From assembly GCA_017431345.1 (NCBI GenBank), contig JAFRLH010000055.1, positions 58,229-122,228 on the forward strand: a stretch of 64,000 nucleotides of DNA, in the 5' to 3' direction. The notes under the pieces are model-generated. The model saw only the letters and a list, made by a program, of their open reading frames with translations, ran no database searches and was not told the DNA's origin. This document shows, one piece after another, positions 22,668 through 58,755 of the stretch. The DNA is from Lachnospiraceae bacterium. Its GTDB lineage: Bacteria > Bacillota > Clostridia > Lachnospirales > Lachnospiraceae. The translations under genes and the position numbers were made by a program. Every line of letters begins with the position of its first letter. Positions within the stretch are counted from its first letter, which is position 1.

Positions 22668-23639
22668 ATGTACTATTTTCGAAAAAAAATTTGCGGTTCA
22701 TTAAGAAGAGAAATGATCCGTGCTGTCCTTGAACGCATGCAGGGCATGGAAATCGAATTCAATACAGAACGAATAAACAATCTGCAGGAACAGGGATCAG
22801 ACGGGAAATACGAAGTTGACAAAATGCTGAACATTCCGTACATGAACCGCGGTGAGGTCCCTCTGGCGATGGATATTTTCAGGCCGGTCGTCCCCGAAGG
22901 GCAGGAACTGCCTGTAATCATCACGATCCATGGCGGCGGACTTGTGGCCGGGGACCGTTCGATCTCAAGATACCTCGCGAACGATCTCGCCGGACGGGGA
23001 TATCTCGTCTTCTCCCTGGAATACAGACTGGCTCCGCGGGCGAACGCGGCGGAACAGCTTGATGACATCTGCGCCGGCATGGATCTGGTCGGCAGAAAAC
23101 TCGTGGATTTCGAAGTGGATTTCACGCGCATCTTCCTGACGGCGGAAAGCGCCGGCGCTTATCTGGCGATCTATGTTGCCGCCATGAAAAAATCTGAAAA
23201 GCTTCAGAAAGCGATCGGGTATGAGCCTACCAGAATGACCTTCAAAGCGCTCGGGCTGATCTCCGGCATGTTCTATACGAAACGCCGGGATCCCATCGGA
23301 CTGCTTCTCTCCGAGCAGTTCTACGGCGATAAGCGCCTGGACAGGGATTTTCTTCAGTACATGGATCCCGAACACCCGGAGATCATTGACAATCTGCCTC
23401 CTGTTTTCCTGATCACGAGCCGGGGGGATTTTCTGAACAATTATACCCTGATGTATCACAAGGCGCTGAAAAAGGCAGGAAAAAAGACACATCTTGTCTA
23501 TTATGGAGAAAAGGAACTTTCTCATGCTTTTGCTTCCCTCTCCCCCGATCTTGAACAGGGAAAGGATGCGATCGACCGGATGCTCCGCTGGTTCGAGGAA
23601 CAGGCAGATGCGGCCGGCAAAGATCCCGCGAAGCAGTAA
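22668..23639 (+). CDS. Alpha/beta-hydrolase fold-3 carboxylesterase/lipase
   Basis: It has the oxyanion-hole motif IITIHGGGLVAGD and the nucleophile-elbow-like motif TAESAGAY. The exact start is uncertain; internal Met codons are possible. Confidence 0.8.
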   Translation: MYYFRKKICGSLRREMIRAVLERMQGMEIEFNTERINNLQEQGSDGKYEVDKMLNIPYMNRGEVPLAMDIFRPVVPEGQELPVIITIHGGGLVAGDRSISRYLANDLAGRGYLVFSLEYRLAPRANAAEQLDDICAGMDLVGRKLVDFEVDFTRIFLTAESAGAYLAIYVAAMKKSEKLQKAIGYEPTRMTFKALGLISGMFYTKRRDPIGLLLSEQFYGDKRLDRDFLQYMDPEHPEIIDNLPPVFLITSRGDFLNNYTLMYHKALKKAGKKTHLVYYGEKELSHAFASLSPDLEQGKDAIDRMLRWFEEQADAAGKDPAKQ

Positions 23640-23692
23640 TTTCTGAAATGAATTTTAATTATTAATAAATGATCTGTAAGGAGGAATCTGAT

Positions 23693-23914
23693 ATGGCACT
23701 TCGAAAAAAAGCCCCAAAAATCATGAAACCCGTCCTTCCGGCCCGTCCCCCCATCGCCCGCCGTCCGAAGCCCATTAAGCCCGGGCGCCGTCCTGCAGGC
23801 CCCGCTCCTGCCCTGCTTCTTCTTGCTGCAGTGCCGGCAATCAAGAACAAGCGGAAAAAGACTGCAGCCGAACCCGGCAAGGCACCTGCCGAACAGCCCC
23901 CGGCTGATTCCTGA
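23693..23914 (+). CDS. 73-aa Pro/Lys/Arg-rich small protein with one hydrophobic segment
   Basis: A strong RBS, TAAGGAGGAATCTGAT, precedes the ATG. The sequence is MALRKKAPKIMKPVLPARPPIARRPKPIKPGRRPAGPAPALLLLAAVPAIKNKRKK... I recognise no homology, and low complexity makes the coding call uncertain. Confidence 0.45.
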   Translation: MALRKKAPKIMKPVLPARPPIARRPKPIKPGRRPAGPAPALLLLAAVPAIKNKRKKTAAEPGKAPAEQPPADS

Positions 23915-23961: not shown

Positions 23962-26076
23962 ATGAATACGATCGAACAGAAGAACTACGAGAAGGTCTCT
24001 GCGCGTGTCAGAAGCGGAAAGATCACGGCGCAGAAGAGCTGGAAAATGATCAGAGAGCTGAATTCCTTCAGCGACGAGAGGCTTGATAAAGCTGCCCTCA
24101 TTACCGGTAAGCGCACATTCACATACCGCCAGCTGTTCAGGCAGTGGGAACGCTATGCGGAAGCGTTCTCAGGTCTGGGGATTACCTGGAGAAAGCATTC
24201 CAGAGTCGGAGTAGTATCCACCCCCTCCGCCGAATCCGTGTTCACTTTTTACGGGCTGAACATGACAGGCGCTTCCGTATCCATGATCCACATGCTGGAT
24301 GTACTGGAAAGTTCCCGTTTTGACATAATGATCCGCAAAGAAGGGCTCACAGATCTTATTTTCAGCGATATTGCCGTAAATCCCGCGCTGGTACGGCGTA
24401 TTGCGGAAAACAAAGAGTCACTCGGCCTCCGCAATATTATCATTTCACAGAATACTGTGGCAGGCCCCTTTGCTCCCCCTGAGCTGAAGCTGCACAGCAG
24501 GATGATCCACAGACAGTTAAAGACGATCCCCGGCGTCCTGTTCATGGATGACCTTCTTGAAGAATACGAAGCCCATCCCATTGTTTACGGACGCAGCGCT
24601 TCTGCGGAAGACGCGCTCATCATTCATACTTCAGGGACCACGAGCGGGATCCATAAGCCTGTTCCCTTTTCTGATCAGGCATTTAACGAATCTGTCTCCA
24701 GGCTTTTGACAGACGAAAGGTTCCGTTTTATGGAGGGAACTGCCGTCTCATTCCTGGGAATGGAACTGGCCGCGTCTTATGCTGTCATGGACATGATGCA
24801 TCTTCCGCTTTCCTTTGGCGGTGCTATTGTAACGATTCCCATGGGCATCTTTAATCCGTTGATGGGGAAGGCTATTCCGCATTACGGCGTGAATATCATG
24901 TTCGGGTCTCCCGGCATGATCGAAGACTGGATCAGAGTCCCGGAAAAACCGGATCTGTCCTCGCTCGCCTTTATCTTCCTTGGCGGCGTATATGTCTCGC
25001 TGGACGAAAAACGCCGGCTGGATAATTATCTTGCAGAATGCGGCTGCAAAGTCCGTACTACGATCGGTTACGGACTTACCGAAGCAGGGGCTGCTGTCAT
25101 CATTTCGGATGCAGAACGCACAGACGATGCCATCGGATTTCCGCTGCAGGGAGTAAAGGTCCTGATCTGCGATGAAGAGGACGGAAAATTCTATACGCCG
25201 GAAGACGGGCCCCATACCGGCACCCTTTTCCTGTCGACGCCGTCTTTAAGCAGCGGCAGGATCGATGACGAAGTCTTTTTTACGCTTGATGAAATAGACG
25301 GAGAGTCTTTCCTGAACACCTATGACAAGGTGACAGTCTATGAAGACGGCAGCCTTTGCTGCATCGGCAGGACAGACAAATACTTCGTGAATAATGAAGG
25401 CGTCCGGTTCGACGCAGGGATCGTGGAAACCGCGGTGGCAGCGCAGCCGGGGATCAGGGCCTGCGCGCTCGCTCCCGGATTTGACAAACTTCTTCACGAT
25501 ACGATTCCCGTCCTGTATGTCAGTACAACGGTGGCCGGCCGCGGTGCCGCAGGCGTCGTCCGCCAGGCTCTGTGCAATGCTTTCATAAAGGAGAACAGAA
25601 TACAGGAAACAAATCTTCCGGGACAATGCGTCATCACGGAGAAGATCCCATTCACGGAGACCGGGAAGGTAGATGTGCACAAGATCTTAAAGGCCGGGAT
25701 CAACGGAAAACGATTTACCGTGACGCCTGTACGGATCCGGGGGAAGCTTACAGATGTAACGCTTATTCCCGCTCCCGACTCGGTCCAAGAAAAGATCGGC
25801 TTATGGACAGGGCTCCCTGAAGAACTGGAAATGAATGCAGATGTTCTCAAAACGGCTTTCACACCTGCTTTTGAACGCGCCAAATCCGGTAAGAACAGGG
25901 CTTTCGCCCCGCCGGTCCCGCCCGGGAAGTCCGGAGAACAGGGCTTTCGGAATTTTGATCCGCGCAGGAAGCATCTTCAATTTACGATCATGCTTCTGCA
26001 GCATTCCCTGGAATTCTGCCGCAGACTGCAGGGATCGATCGCGCCTGAACCTGAAGATGATGACACATTTTCGTAA
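23962..26076 (+). CDS. Divergent adenylate-forming (AMP-binding/ANL superfamily) enzyme, paralog A
   Basis: 704 aa. Motifs are IIHTSGTTSGIHKP (A3-like), IGYGLTEAG (A5), IGRTDKYFVNNEGVRF (A8) and PFTETGKVD (A10 Lys). About 120 aa of non-catalytic C-terminal extension follow. Confidence 0.8.
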   Translation: MNTIEQKNYEKVSARVRSGKITAQKSWKMIRELNSFSDERLDKAALITGKRTFTYRQLFRQWERYAEAFSGLGITWRKHSRVGVVSTPSAESVFTFYGLNMTGASVSMIHMLDVLESSRFDIMIRKEGLTDLIFSDIAVNPALVRRIAENKESLGLRNIIISQNTVAGPFAPPELKLHSRMIHRQLKTIPGVLFMDDLLEEYEAHPIVYGRSASAEDALIIHTSGTTSGIHKPVPFSDQAFNESVSRLLTDERFRFMEGTAVSFLGMELAASYAVMDMMHLPLSFGGAIVTIPMGIFNPLMGKAIPHYGVNIMFGSPGMIEDWIRVPEKPDLSSLAFIFLGGVYVSLDEKRRLDNYLAECGCKVRTTIGYGLTEAGAAVIISDAERTDDAIGFPLQGVKVLICDEEDGKFYTPEDGPHTGTLFLSTPSLSSGRIDDEVFFTLDEIDGESFLNTYDKVTVYEDGSLCCIGRTDKYFVNNEGVRFDAGIVETAVAAQPGIRACALAPGFDKLLHDTIPVLYVSTTVAGRGAAGVVRQALCNAFIKENRIQETNLPGQCVITEKIPFTETGKVDVHKILKAGINGKRFTVTPVRIRGKLTDVTLIPAPDSVQEKIGLWTGLPEELEMNADVLKTAFTPAFERAKSGKNRAFAPPVPPGKSGEQGFRNFDPRRKHLQFTIMLLQHSLEFCRRLQGSIAPEPEDDDTFS

Positions 26077-26133
26077 GATACCGATATGATCTGCGAGAAG
26101 AGAAAAACATATGAAAAGGAGATCTGTCACACC

Positions 26134-28920
26134 ATGACAAAAGCGGAAGAAAAAAAATATGCAGCACTCTCTGCGCGTATCGCGAGCGGCGAGATCGCGG
26201 ACCAGAAAAGCTGGAAAATGATCCGGGAACTGAATTCCTTCAGTGAGGAACGCCTGAATTCCGTTGCTATGATCGACTGCACGCGCAAGTACACCTACCG
26301 CCAGATGTTCAGGCAGTGGGAACGGTATGCAGAGGTGTTCTCCGCCCTTAATATTACCGGAAAGAACAACTCCCGGGCAGGCATGCTTTCCGCTCCTGCC
26401 GTTGAATCCGTCTTTGCCTTTTACGGTCTGAACATGACCGGCGCATCCGTTTCCATGATCAGCACGACCGATGCGCTGAATCTGGACCTCCTCGAAAAAA
26501 TGATCCCGGAGGAAGGCATTACGGATCTTCTTCTTACCGATACGATCCTGCAGCCCGAACTGTTCCGGCGTCTGATTGCTGAACAGGAGGCGCTTGGGCT
26601 CCGCAATATCATTGTGCTCCACTGGGAACTTACAGGCCCCTATGTCACCCGGAATCTTAACCTGTACAGTAAGAATCATTATAAGCAGATCAAAAAGATC
26701 CCCGGCGTTGTTCTTATGGACGACCTGCTTGACCAATACGAGGCAGCACCTATTGTCTACGGCCCCGCTCATTCTGAAGAAGCTGCCCTGATCCTTCACA
26801 CCTCCGGAACGACCAGCGGGATCCACAAACCGATCCCGCATTCTGACCTGGGGTTCAATGAAGCCGTTGCCAGGCTGCTGCGGGACGACCGTTTTAAATA
26901 CCTGGCCGGCAATGCAAGGACCTTCCTCGGGCTTGATCTTTCAGCCTCTTTCGCCATGATGGATATGCTGCATCTGCCGCTCGCTTTCGGCGGCACTGTC
27001 GTTTCGATCCCCATGGGCTTCTATAATACCGCTGTCGCAAGAGCGATCAAAGATTTTGATATCAATGTTCTGTTCGGCGGCGGATTCCTGCTGCCCCAGA
27101 TGATGCGCAGCCCGATCAGGCCCGATCTGTCTCCTCTTGAACTGTGCTTCATCGGCGGTGTATATACTTCGGCGGACAGAAAGAAACAGTATGAGGAGTT
27201 CCTTGAAAAATGCGGTTCGAAAGCCCGTATTACCATCGGATACGGCCTGTCTGAAGCAGGCGCCGCTGTCATTATCGCCGACCCGGAAAGAACGGACGAT
27301 GCGATCGGCTATCCTCTTCCCGGCGTGAAGGTAAAGATCTATGACGAAGAAGAGGAAAAATACTATTCACTGGAAGACGGGCCGCATACAGGCGTCCTGT
27401 TCCTCTCCTCCCCTTCTGTCAGCAGCGGCAAAATCGATGACAAGGTGTTCTTTACCCTGGAAGAGATCGACGGGGAAGAATATCTGAACACCTATGATCT
27501 GGTTACAGTCAATGAGGACGGCAGCCTCACCTGTATCGGAAGAGCCAACAAGTATTTCGTGAACAACGAAGGCATTCGTTTTGACGCGGGGCTTGTGGAA
27601 ACGGCGGTTTCGGCACAGCCCGGGATCATCTCCTGCGGCCTGGCGCCGATCTATGAGAAGAGCATCCATGACACGGTCCCTGTCCTCTATGTACATGCCG
27701 AAGGGAATCCTGCTGCCGCCATGCGGACAGTCCATCAGGCTCTTCTGAATGTCTTCATAAAGGAGAACAGGATCGTGGATACGAACCTGCCGGGCCAGTG
27801 CGTGATCACGGACCGTATCCCGATGACGACGACAGGGAAAGTCGATGTTTATGCGATCATAAAAGAAGGCGTAAAAGGACCGGTATACATGGTAACGCCG
27901 ATCCGCAGGCAGGGTAAGCTGATCGATATCGGTCTCGTTCCCGTTCCGAAGAAAGCCGACAGTCATGCAGTTCTTTCAGGCATGCCCGATGAGCTTCATT
28001 TCGGGAAGGATTTAAGGCAGGCTGTGGGATTATTCTTCCCCGGTCTCGACCGTGCGGCGCAATCCGGAGACTGCCGGCAGGCACACGAGCCGATGCGCGG
28101 ACCGATGCGGCCTCCGTTCTTTGACAATATGAGGCAGGGGAACGGCCCCATGCGTGCGCCTTTCTTCGGGAACCGTATGCCGAACCGCTTCCCCATGACT
28201 CCTCCCTGGTTCGAAAACCGGCAGCAGAACCAGGACGGACAGGCTTATAGCGATCCCCGTCAGTACGGACTGGAGATGGTCATCCAGTTCCTGCAGAATA
28301 TGATCGATGTGTGCCAGCAGATGGAGAACATGCCTTCCCCCGGCGATGGCTATCAGCCTCCTCAGGGGCAGCAGGGCTTCATGCCTGGCAATGGCTATCA
28401 GCCTCCCCAGGGGCAGCAGGGCTTCATGCCCGGCAATGGCTACCAGCCTCCCCAGGGGCAGCAGGGTTATATGCCCGGCAATGGCTATGAACCTCCCCAG
28501 GGGCAGCATGGCTTCATGCCAGGCGATGGCTATCAGCCTCCTCAGGGACAGCAGGACTTCATGCCCGGCAACGGCTATCAACCTCCTCAGGGACAGCAGG
28601 GCTTCATGCCAGGCAATGGCTATCAGCCTCCCCAGGGACAGCAGGGCTTTATGCCCGGTGATGGTTACCAGCCTCCTCAGGGGCAGCAGGGCTTCATGCC
28701 CGGCAATGGCTATCAGCCTCCCCAGGAACAGCAGGGCTTCATGCCCGGCAACGGTTACCAGCCTCCCCAGGGACAGGGAATGCCTATGCCCCGGATGGGC
28801 TTCATGCCGCAGGGCAGCCAGAACGGATCAGATCCCGGGCCCATGATGAGAGACTTCGTCTTTGATATACTCCGCAAACTGTTCTATGCCTCTGATACAG
28901 ATTATTTCTATGAGGATTAA
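26134..28920 (+). CDS. Divergent adenylate-forming (ANL) enzyme, paralog B, with a long Q/P/G/M-rich repeat tail
   Basis: It has the same motifs as paralog A: ILHTSGTTSGIHKP, IGYGLSEAG, IGRANKYFVNNEGIRF and PMTTTGKVD. The N-terminus MTKAEEKKYAALSARIASGEIADQKSWKMIRELN aligns with paralog A. The track ORF begins at 26086. Confidence 0.8.
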   Translation: MTKAEEKKYAALSARIASGEIADQKSWKMIRELNSFSEERLNSVAMIDCTRKYTYRQMFRQWERYAEVFSALNITGKNNSRAGMLSAPAVESVFAFYGLNMTGASVSMISTTDALNLDLLEKMIPEEGITDLLLTDTILQPELFRRLIAEQEALGLRNIIVLHWELTGPYVTRNLNLYSKNHYKQIKKIPGVVLMDDLLDQYEAAPIVYGPAHSEEAALILHTSGTTSGIHKPIPHSDLGFNEAVARLLRDDRFKYLAGNARTFLGLDLSASFAMMDMLHLPLAFGGTVVSIPMGFYNTAVARAIKDFDINVLFGGGFLLPQMMRSPIRPDLSPLELCFIGGVYTSADRKKQYEEFLEKCGSKARITIGYGLSEAGAAVIIADPERTDDAIGYPLPGVKVKIYDEEEEKYYSLEDGPHTGVLFLSSPSVSSGKIDDKVFFTLEEIDGEEYLNTYDLVTVNEDGSLTCIGRANKYFVNNEGIRFDAGLVETAVSAQPGIISCGLAPIYEKSIHDTVPVLYVHAEGNPAAAMRTVHQALLNVFIKENRIVDTNLPGQCVITDRIPMTTTGKVDVYAIIKEGVKGPVYMVTPIRRQGKLIDIGLVPVPKKADSHAVLSGMPDELHFGKDLRQAVGLFFPGLDRAAQSGDCRQAHEPMRGPMRPPFFDNMRQGNGPMRAPFFGNRMPNRFPMTPPWFENRQQNQDGQAYSDPRQYGLEMVIQFLQNMIDVCQQMENMPSPGDGYQPPQGQQGFMPGNGYQPPQGQQGFMPGNGYQPPQGQQGYMPGNGYEPPQGQHGFMPGDGYQPPQGQQDFMPGNGYQPPQGQQGFMPGNGYQPPQGQQGFMPGDGYQPPQGQQGFMPGNGYQPPQEQQGFMPGNGYQPPQGQGMPMPRMGFMPQGSQNGSDPGPMMRDFVFDILRKLFYASDTDYFYED
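28342..28791 (+). repeat. 45-bp in-frame tandem repeat, about 10 copies, encoding G(N/D)GYQPPQGQQGFMP
   Basis: ggc(a/g)atggctatcagcctcc(t/c)caggggcagcagggcttcatgcc(t/c) repeats head-to-tail from 28342. The copies differ by a few substitutions only. Confidence 0.95.
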
Positions 28921-28950
28921 GGAGTTGGTAAATCTCCCGTGAACAGGATA

Positions 28951-28988
28951 AGCCGCCGCCCGATCCACTCGGGCGGCGGCTTTTTTTG
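28951..28988 (+). terminator. Rho-independent terminator of the adenylase operon
   Basis: AGCCGCCGCCCG-atccact-CGGGCGGCGGCT followed by TTTTTTT. Confidence 0.85.
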
Positions 28989-29020
28989 CACAATTCTTTC
29001 TTATTCTGTTCCGGCAGTCA

Positions 29021-57465: not shown

Positions 57466-58755
57466 TCATCCGACTCTCATGCGGAATTTCCGGGCGTCTT
57501 TGGCATCGTTCACGGTCTCGATCACAGCGCCGAGGCTTCTCAGTTTCTCATCGAAATCCTCGTATCCGCGCTGAATGTATCTGATATTGTCGACCGTCGT
57601 ATAGCCTTCGGCTGCCAGGCCGGCCATGACAAGCGCCGCGCCGGCACGCAGATCCGGGGCTTCCAGATCCGCCCCTGTCAGGCGGTCAACACCGCGGAAT
57701 ACCGCGACATTTCCTTCCACCTTGATATCCGCGCCCATCTTCGCAAGTTCATCCGCGTATTTGAAACGGTTCTCAAAAATGCTTTCCGTGATAATGCCTG
57801 TGCCGTCCGCAAGACAGAGCGCTACGCCCATCTGGGGCTGCATGTCTGTCGGGAAACCCGGGTAAGGCAGTGTCTTTACATTGCAGCTCATGGTCTTCGG
57901 CTTGCCGACAACGCGGATGCTGTCATCGAATTCAAGCACTTCGCAGCCAAGTTCAAGAAGCTTTGACGAAATGGCTTCCATATGCTTCGGAATAATGTTC
58001 TTGACTGTAACATCCCCTCTGGTGACCGCCGCCGCGAACATGAACGTGCCGGCTTCGATCTGATCCGGAATAATGGAATATTCCGTGCCGTGCAGATGAT
58101 CCACGCCTCTGATCCTGATAACATCCGTGCCGGCGCCTTTGATATTCGCGCCCATGGAGTTCAGCATGTTCGCCACATCAACGACATGCGGCTCTTTGGC
58201 GGCATTCTCGATGATCGTGTTTCCATCTGCAAGAACGGCTGTCAGCATAACATTGATCGTAGCGCCGACGGAGACCATATCCATGTAAACATGACCGCCG
58301 CGCAGCCTTGTGGAATCCGCGATGACCAGGCCATGCTCGACTTTCGCTTTCGCGGAAAGAGCCCTGAATCCCTTCAGATGCAGGTCGATCGGGCGGCTTC
58401 CGATATCACAGCCGCCGGGAAGCGCGACTTCCGCATGGGAATACTTCCCGAGCAGCGCGCCGATCAGATAATACCCTGCCCTGATCTTCCTGATGAAATC
58501 ATTCTCCACATGGACAGAATGGATATTGCTGCCGTTCAGGCGCACCGTATGTCTGTCCGGACGCTCCACGATCACGCCGATATCTGCAAGCGCTTCCAGC
58601 ATGACGTTGATATCCCTGACATCAGGAAGATTATCTATAACTACTGTTTCATCTGTCATAATGGCGGCAGCCAGAATACCCAGAGCTGCGTTCTTCGCTC
58701 CGGCTATGATAACTTCTCCGACTAACGGATTTCCGCCTTTCATTATATACTGCAT
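57466..58755 (-). CDS. murA: UDP-N-acetylglucosamine 1-carboxyvinyltransferase
   Basis: GAKNAALGILAAAIM, LPGGCDIGSRPIDLHL and FPTDMQ. Start placed at the track M22. Confidence 0.9.
   Translation of the reverse strand: MQYIMKGGNPLVGEVIIAGAKNAALGILAAAIMTDETVVIDNLPDVRDINVMLEALADIGVIVERPDRHTVRLNGSNIHSVHVENDFIRKIRAGYYLIGALLGKYSHAEVALPGGCDIGSRPIDLHLKGFRALSAKAKVEHGLVIADSTRLRGGHVYMDMVSVGATINVMLTAVLADGNTIIENAAKEPHVVDVANMLNSMGANIKGAGTDVIRIRGVDHLHGTEYSIIPDQIEAGTFMFAAAVTRGDVTVKNIIPKHMEAISSKLLELGCEVLEFDDSIRVVGKPKTMSCNVKTLPYPGFPTDMQPQMGVALCLADGTGIITESIFENRFKYADELAKMGADIKVEGNVAVFRGVDRLTGADLEAPDLRAGAALVMAGLAAEGYTTVDNIRYIQRGYEDFDEKLRSLGAVIETVNDAKDARKFRMRVG

Follow-up and report, generated by a model that had tools for sequence, protein, structure and literature searches.

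The C-terminal EEVD-COOH motif of Hsp70 docks onto TPR co-chaperones. In SSB, a disordered Gly/Gln/Pro-rich linker ends in the acidic-aromatic tip DDDIPF, and in FtsZ a linker leads to a conserved C-terminal peptide; both tips mediate protein contacts. The GGMP repeats of Hsp70 lie between its lid and the EEVD motif, and mutating these repeats compromises binding of the co-chaperone Hop (PMC7926355). Here, we analyzed a 64,000-nucleotide stretch of DNA from a Lachnospiraceae bacterium (assembly GCA_017431345.1, contig JAFRLH010000055.1, forward-strand positions 58,229 to 122,228), which as a whole is referred to as the window. We focused on a block of 45-bp tandem repeats inside gene B (26086-28920, forward strand), which encodes an adenylate-forming enzyme of the ANL superfamily with a 312-amino-acid C-terminal tail. 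The reading that we favor, with moderate confidence, is that the repeats serve as a disordered linker at whose end a conserved C-terminal peptide is displayed for docking.

Like Hsp70, the product of gene B combines a folded ATP-using domain with a variable number of Gly/Met/Pro-rich tandem repeats and a short, conserved, acidic C-terminal peptide, and two of its ANL relatives carry GGMPxMP repeats (P0028, and P0044, whose tail combines (GGMPxMP)n with (GMGMNPQSSPYGP)n). Unlike Hsp70, with which it shares no sequence homology, it belongs to another enzyme class, has a longer tip (an amphipathic helix plus FYED) and has a tail 5-10 times longer. As in SSB and FtsZ, the linker varies extremely in both length and sequence within a constrained composition, and the C-terminal peptide is conserved and acidic/aromatic or helical. 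Whereas SSB and FtsZ are nucleic-acid-binding or cytoskeletal hubs, here a metabolic enzyme of the adenylate-forming type carries the linker, which in gene B is built of exact tandem repeats that are selected at the level of the unit. The architecture itself, a disordered linker with a C-terminal motif, is a known one; its ANL carrier is new, and the pattern of repeat turnover is unusual. Literature searches on disordered tails of adenylate-forming enzymes returned nothing relevant.

By far the strongest tandem array of the window spans 28339-28776 (period 45, 9.7 copies, 86% matches, score 645; Tandem Repeats Finder). It lies within the open reading frame (ORF) of gene B, and cutting it in frame from position 28342 yields ten 15-codon units with the consensus G(N/D)GYQPPQGQQGFMP. 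This repeat block occupies 28342-28791 on the forward strand and residues 737-886, with residues numbered along the 928-amino-acid protein that starts at 26134; its tenth unit (28747-28791) decays to ...GQGMPMP. The initial annotation of this DNA had described about ten near-identical 45-bp repeats, in frame and head to tail, that form a low-complexity tail on an enzyme. The count, the reading frame and the enzyme (an AMP-binding, ANL-type protein) all held up, whereas "near-identical" somewhat overstated the similarity: units 1-9 share 36-43 of their 45 nucleotides in pairwise comparisons (mean 88%, range 80-96%). Both peptides quoted in that annotation, the stretch PMRGPMRPPFF...TPPWF before the array and the terminal DFVFDILRKLFYASDTDYFYED, are present in the translation of ORF 26086-28920. 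Because the conserved tip lies downstream in the same frame, the array must be translated. The ORFs that overlie it in other frames and on the opposite strand are by-products of a stop-free repeat. Two contigs from other samples (L004 and L005) show no single-base difference from the window across 4.8 kb, array included, so an accident in the assembly of one record, a concern that had been raised at the outset, does not explain the array. The 45-bp repeat is real, coding and reproducible.

The similarity of the units had initially been taken as a sign of recent expansion, which the substitution pattern does not support. Between the units of the window, the proportion of differing synonymous sites (pS) is 0.405 and that of differing nonsynonymous sites (pN) is 0.045, giving a pN/pS of 0.11; the differences are almost all synonymous. 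Between the units of the orthologous locus L001, pN/pS is 0.22. As a reference, the window protein and its orthologue in L001 (P0002, 88% identical at the protein level) differ in their catalytic cores with a pS of 0.29 and a pN/pS of 0.15, and in their repeat blocks with a comparable pN/pS of 0.21. P0002 also has exactly ten units, which have diverged in their own way (PQWQQ variants, for instance). Because the units have a higher pS than the orthologous cores, a low pN and the same number in both lineages, the array is old and maintained by purifying selection on the peptide rather than being a fresh variable number tandem repeat (VNTR).

To place the tail of gene B in its family, we compared it with those of the best 120 homologues. 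Most of them carry C-terminal extensions of 100-500 residues, and at least 23 of the 120 end in (I/L/M)xx(I/L)(L/M)x(K/R)(L/F)F(N/H/Y)AS..D.(F/Y)YE(D/E)-COOH. The enzyme cores of the homologues that share this tip are 40-60% identical, and the acidic/aromatic end is thus conserved across considerable divergence, as had been proposed. In an alignment of 22 tips (A1), the F is invariant, and conservation is at least 90% for the S (Ser22), Y and E. Between core and tip, by contrast, the repeats of different homologues are unrelated in sequence: their periods are 5, 8, 12, 13, 15, 22, 24, 26 or 30 amino acids, and the tails range from 117 to 509 amino acids. For instance, P0010 has repeats of the form (QGFPFPPGWPFP...)n and a Butyrivibrio homologue has (MPQGGMGCANN)n. 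The composition is shared, in that nearly all of the repeats have a high content of Q, P, G, M and F (Q+P+G+M typically 45-58%), and many relatives have in their tails a degenerate version of the motif PQG-(F/L/M)-G-(C/Y) / MPQ. The linker is variable in sequence and length, predicted to be disordered and preserved in composition, while the tip is conserved across differing linkers. Because a conserved tip sits behind a hypervariable linker across the family, we read the tail as a tether that carries a short linear motif.

The tip comprises the last 30 residues (28828-28917, forward strand), in which an amphipathic helix, FVFDILRKLFYAS, leads into the acidic/aromatic end DTDYFYED-COOH. A profile of these 30 residues, searched against 1.84e9 representative proteins, gave 20 matches at E<=1e-3, all at the extreme C-terminus. 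All are members of this family or fragments of them, save two (an RnfB-like protein of 59 amino acids and a SpoIVB-like protein of 352 amino acids) that are probably chimeric gene calls. A word-index search with a 42-residue profile of the tip returned three family fragments only. We considered the possibility that the tip is a modular targeting signal, such as a cargo peptide of the bacterial microcompartment or encapsulin type or a secretion signal, and rejected it because the profile is confined to this ANL family. A membrane-targeting helix seems unlikely, as an acidic tip with a net charge of -4 follows the helix.

We assessed the disorder of the tail with AlphaFold2 (AF2), using alignments that were shallow (43-50 sequences, 50 for gene B). 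Residues 732-900 of gene B have a predicted local distance difference test score (pLDDT) of 28-33 and no secondary structure, and the tip helix (residues 902-921) reaches about 50. In P0043, a relative that is fused to a hydrolase, the tail is likewise predicted to be disordered and the tip helix (residues 1029-1042) has a pLDDT of about 41-51. The repeat block consists of 25% G, 25% Q, 21% P, 7% Y and 7% M (Q+N about 30%), contains no Cys or Ser and has a PP doublet in each unit. Rauscher et al. 2006 (Structure 14:1667) reportedly defined a threshold in 2P+G that separates elastomer-like or disordered compositions from amyloid ones; with a value of 0.67, the block falls on the elastomer-like/disordered side of that threshold. 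A match to the high-molecular-weight (HMW) glutenin repeats (PF03157; E 2.8e-7) scored 29.8 bits, under the gathering threshold of 50, and is compositional. Gene B shares with these and other elastomeric repeats a P/G/Q-rich background with interspersed aromatics, but the glutenins are plant storage proteins with no evolutionary link to it.

The initial annotation had also likened the repeats to the prion-forming repeats of yeast Sup35. The resemblance is superficial and limited to composition; in both cases, short tandem Q/G/Y/N/P units are appended to an enzyme-like protein. The prion-like character does not follow from it, given the P and G content and the fully disordered prediction. Unlike the Sup35 repeats, with which it shares no homology, the tail of gene B has twice the proline, contains Met and Phe, sits at the C-terminus, has a predicted non-amyloid composition and belongs to a bacterial host. 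Prion-domain prediction had been suggested as a check. Scored PAPA-style, with propensities attributed to Toombs et al. 2010, the block has a mean of -0.13, compared with +0.063 for the Sup35 unit.

The reading that we favor can be laid out as follows. The repeat block is the center of a long C-terminal extension, predicted to be disordered, that is typical of an uncharacterized ANL clade of ruminant-gut anaerobes. The plan of this extension is fixed and runs from the core through a G-x-PEEL motif, a Pro/Met/Phe-rich segment, a conserved helix and the variable Gln/Pro/Gly/Met/aromatic repeats to an amphipathic helix with the end ...LLxKLFxAS..D.FYED-COOH. The block itself may act as a flexible, non-amyloid tether or spacer that lets the terminal peptide reach far out from the enzyme, and its F, M and Y residues, placed at regular intervals, could contribute weak "sticker" interactions. 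Docking onto a putative partner would be the task of the terminal peptide. Since the unit is 15 codons long, slippage would alter the length of the tether and keep the frame, which would explain the repeated origin of such arrays in the family.

The analysis shows the repeat with its frame, age and selection, the prediction of disorder, an architecture that extends across the family, and a tip that is conserved and confined to that family; the tethering function and the docking of the tip are inferred. Several points weigh against this reading. The evidence is computational throughout. AF2 gives no confident docking of the tip on the ANL core of gene B (pLDDT about 50) or on the hydrolase and core of P0043 (pLDDT 41-51); by their pLDDT, these two runs neither support nor refute docking in cis. 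When we searched for a partner gene with an all-versus-all BLAST of the ORFs within 4 kb on either side of 13 tip-bearing loci, only the ANL and hydrolase families were recovered, and the hydrolase also accompanies members of the ANL family that have no tail. Some relatives that bear the tip have other linkers: that of P0018 is Q/A-rich and probably helical, and those of P0038 and P0137 are highly charged, so the Q/P/G/M composition is not obligatory. Finally, the selection on the exact 15-residue unit exceeds what a pure spacer would need, which hints that the units may bind something, be modified or self-associate. Together with the recurrent PQG motif and a stand-alone gene for a 116-residue peptide in Butyrivibrio, this strong selection on the unit suggests that the repeats may do more than provide space.

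The alternative that comes closest, although we consider it unlikely, is that the tail is a sticker-and-spacer domain, in which F, M and Y residues, set at regular distances among Q, P and G, would drive reversible self-association or condensate formation and so concentrate the enzyme together with an esterase partner. Oxidation of the Met residues might tune such a domain, to which the tip would add further valence. It would account for the strong selection on the exact unit (the pN/pS of 0.11), for the fixed spacing of aromatic residues and Met, for the PQG-(F/L/M)-G-(C/Y) / MPQ motif shared by many relatives and for the stand-alone 116-residue peptide of like repeats encoded beside the Butyrivibrio enzyme gene. 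In addition, Met-rich low-complexity domains are described as regulators of phase separation (review PMC8394241). The cohesive potential of the block is weak, however, since it is rich in Pro and has no net positive charge, several relatives have charged or Q/A-rich linkers, and this is the only such protein in the window.

More speculative, and in our view quite improbable, is a broader version in which the tails are functional repeat polymers, either a Met- or redox-sensitive condensate scaffold for the enzyme and its esterase or a self-acylated, pantetheine-free swinging arm or acceptor. If this were true, the Butyrivibrio (RGCGMLPQMPQQQ)n-polyAsp peptide would be a free-standing form of the tail module.

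It is very unlikely that the array is an assembly artefact or that it is a low-complexity insertion of no functional consequence, be it "junk" or a generic bristle for solubility. Members of the ANL family without a tail do exist, as this explanation would allow, but the purifying selection on the peptide, the conserved number of units, the identical DNA in independent samples and the proper terminator that follows the stop codon all speak against it.

The initial annotation had further expected a probable, VNTR-like instability of the copy number. As a full alternative, the array would be a hypermutable VNTR or contingency locus with frequent gain and loss of 45-bp units and selection among the length variants. 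We regard this as highly improbable. A unit length that is a multiple of three lets the frame survive slippage, and arrays arise and turn over across the family, but units that are 80-96% identical and near saturation at synonymous sites are a poor substrate for slippage. The number of units is ten in both of the 88%-identical lineages, and the ten-unit array is identical in L004, L005, P0121 and P0123; three further records that belong to the strain or species of the window agree with it in length. Shorter arrays with normal flanks occur only on tiny contigs (three units in P0124, on 832 bp, and six in P0131, on 770 bp). Contigs of this size (770-832 bp) are typical of collapsed repeats; the two short arrays could be collapsed assemblies or real length variants and are not evidence either way. 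Two further metagenome contigs (L002:5589-6124 and L003:5049-5230) are identical to the window until position 28675, inside unit 8, and then continue into unrelated AT-rich, eukaryote-like sequence. This break, which yields a truncated gene call of 867 amino acids (P0122), most likely reflects an assembly chimera that arose within the repeat. One GTDB contig ends within the array. Because contigs break, collapse or turn chimeric inside the array, short-read assemblies are unreliable at this position. Exact-DNA scans of the GTDB genomes and the Joint Genome Institute (JGI) metagenomes with unique sequence from just upstream of the array, intended to add copy-number data, gave no match. A search for the 15-residue repeat elsewhere, made with the 150-residue block, returned one orthologue fragment only, a weak negative given that a single candidate was retrieved.

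We give very little credence to the idea that the tail is a tethered substrate or carrier arm, in which a nucleophile of the tail (the Ser of LFxAS, or the Cys/Tyr of the relatives' repeats) or the acidic C-terminus would enter the ANL active site. The tail would then undergo acylation or adenylation by its own enzyme, in cis, and work as a swinging arm that needs no pantetheine. The nearest solved relatives of gene B by sequence are ligases that load carrier proteins (DltA and the beta-aminoacyl-acyl carrier protein (ACP) synthetase), yet no carrier protein gene or domain was found in Pfam scans or around the tip-bearing loci. The conserved Ser22 of the tip, the relatives that combine GxGC repeats with an HxxxDG-like N-terminal domain and the stand-alone Cys-repeat peptides beside the Butyrivibrio gene would also agree with an arm of this type. 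Against it, the repeats of the window have neither Cys nor Ser, the tip is far too short for a carrier domain, and AF2 does not put it in the active site. We know of no precedent for a covalently acylated tail arm of this kind. Equally implausible is an amyloid-forming oligopeptide repeat analogous to that of Sup35: the near-Sup35 content of Q and G with Y and N present, the similarity of the units to PQGGYQQYN and a glutenin match that marks the same compositional class are outweighed by the proline content with its PP doublets, the 2P+G value, the PAPA-style score, the AF2 prediction without beta propensity and the lack of homology, and the GGMP-like, PQQPPFA-like or charged repeats of the relatives are even less amyloid-prone.

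The enzyme that bears this tail was identified from its ORF, a Pfam AMP-binding match, the AF2 model and Foldseek. From its first ATG, gene B encodes 944 amino acids; the probable start at 26134 gives 928 amino acids, as in NCBI MBQ6360993.1, and the cluster member P0121 corresponds to residues 17-944 of the longer form. The catalytic core, with the N- and C-terminal ANL subdomains, spans residues 1-616 (26134-27981, forward strand) and contains the P-loop TSGTTSGIHKP and an invariant GK (G568-K569), both seen in the family alignment A3; these correspond to the ANL P-loop (T/S)SG(T/S)TGxPK and to the catalytic Lys of motif A10. It matches the Pfam family AMP-binding (PF00501) over residues 56-448 with 108.8 bits (cut-off 29.9, E 3.5e-31), and AF2 predicts the two-subdomain ANL fold with a pLDDT mostly >90. 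The best Foldseek matches of the core are anthranilate-, acetyl- and 4-coumarate-CoA ligases (E~1e-28, 16-19% identity). No named ANL subfamily fits gene B, as the 58 NCBIfam matches are all far under their cut-offs (best 89.6 versus 632 bits, PRK07529). The first ~616 residues thus share fold and motifs with the ANL superfamily (acyl/aryl-CoA ligases, adenylation domains and luciferases), but the core is very divergent (<=19% identity to solved structures) and the family has an N-terminal helix of its own, the PEEL motif and the long disordered tails.

The tail begins at residues 617-708 (27982-28257, forward strand) with the motif G-x-P-(D/E)-E-L, followed by a Pro/Arg/Phe/Met-rich segment with degenerate GPMR(P/A)PFF repeats. 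The PEEL motif is conserved family-wide in alignment A3, and pLDDT is <50 from residue 634 onwards. A conserved mid-tail helix, RQYGLEMVIQFLQNMIDVCQQME, follows at residues 709-731 (28258-28326, forward strand; AF2 helix, pLDDT about 50-58), and its motif ..IQFLQN.. could be aligned in P0027, P0054, P0065, P0113, P0009 and P0012. An intrinsic terminator with a 14-bp GC-rich stem and a T run lies at 28950-28990 on the forward strand, 30 nt past the stop codon of gene B. The window also contains a 63-bp tandem repeat at 780-944 (2.6 copies, 98% identity), overlapped only by poor-looking ORFs.

Immediately upstream lies paralog A (23962-26076, forward strand), a second member of the ANL family that is 52% identical to gene B. 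Its short tail has the mid-tail helix and neither repeats nor tip. In agreement with the initial statement that it lacks the repeats entirely, its alignment to gene B ends nine residues before its own stop, at the exact start of the array. The pair of genes is kept in L001, L002 and L003. Elsewhere, two ANL modules of the family occur as one fused protein (P0003, 1250 amino acids) rather than as adjacent paralogs as in the window (23962-28920), and the Coriobacteriales loci L018 and L020 have adjacent ANL paralogs of which one is tip-bearing and one tail-less. These arrangements hint that paired ANL modules may act as a heterodimer with the long tail on one subunit only.

Upstream of paralog A, at 22668-23639 on the forward strand, is an alpha/beta hydrolase of the hormone-sensitive-lipase type (Abhydrolase_3 / BD-FAE). 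Such a hydrolase is the sole gene that consistently adjoins the ANL family or is fused to it (P0004, P0043 and others). The 88%-identical relative has a third B-like paralog (L001:2-2854, P0004), to whose C-terminus the hydrolase is fused and whose tail stops right after the Pro/Met/Phe-rich segment. The window keeps only the hydrolase part (22668-23639) at the equivalent place, which points to a rearrangement or deletion upstream. Between the hydrolase and paralog A is an ORF of 81 amino acids (23669-23914, forward strand), basic and Pro/Lys/Arg/Ala-rich, that is called as a gene in L002 and L003. It was considered as a possible acyl carrier protein near gene B and rejected, being basic and Pro-rich with no carrier domain by Pfam.

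In Butyrivibrio sp. WCE2006 (JNKH01000001.1), the hydrolase is separated from the tailed ANL gene by two small genes (L006:7424-7774 and L006:7796-7963). Both small genes carry strong Shine-Dalgarno sites, and the composition of their products matches that of the enzyme tails. The first encodes the 116-residue peptide, with about seven units (R/A)GCGM(L/P)PQMPQQQ and eleven terminal Asp residues, (RGCGMLPQMPQQQ)n-Asp11, and the second a 55-residue peptide in which GRGC occurs twice. Downstream of the ANL gene lie another hydrolase and two ABC exporters.

A scan of the GTDB species genomes placed the family in ruminant-gut metagenome-assembled genomes (MAGs) of Lachnospiraceae, Oscillospiraceae, other Clostridia and Coriobacteriia and in some Thermoplasmata bins; the tip is also present in Coriobacteriales. 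At the loci L009-L081, the family occurs almost only in ruminant gut MAGs, which include Coriobacteriia such as Atopobiaceae and Eggerthellaceae and bins labelled Methanomethylophilaceae, Methanomassiliicoccaceae or Thermoplasmata. This wide spread suggests horizontal transfer within the rumen or, for the archaeal cases, possible binning errors. Members of a separate branch (L066, L048, L058, L073 and others) end in Lys/Glu/Ala/Pro tandem repeats, for instance (EKKEAPKAA)n, without Q/P/G/M repeats or the FYED tip, or alternatively in Met/Pro-rich segments with acidic ends. Three proteins (P0022, P0028 and P0044) have an additional N-terminal domain of ~450 amino acids with the sequence YHGFTDGQG, HxxxDG-like by eye, which resembles the HHxxxDG catalytic motif of condensation/acyltransferase domains. 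This domain had no sequence match in the PDB and no meaningful match in NCBIfam or Pfam.

For the scanning of genomes, the locus carries two cautions. A repeat that is in frame and looks perfect to the eye can still have a long history under selection, which the synonymous divergence among its units quickly reveals; in addition, short-read contigs break, collapse or turn chimeric within such arrays. Bacteria seldom have long disordered regions, and on metabolic enzymes such regions are very unusual. In this case, an entire ANL clade has low-complexity tails of 150-500 residues that have been rebuilt repeatedly from different repeats while one terminal peptide was kept. These tails may be seen as a natural experiment in which a disordered linker is constrained in composition, length and tip, not in sequence, and the conserved tip points to an interaction that would be important for an abundant enzyme/esterase pair of the rumen.

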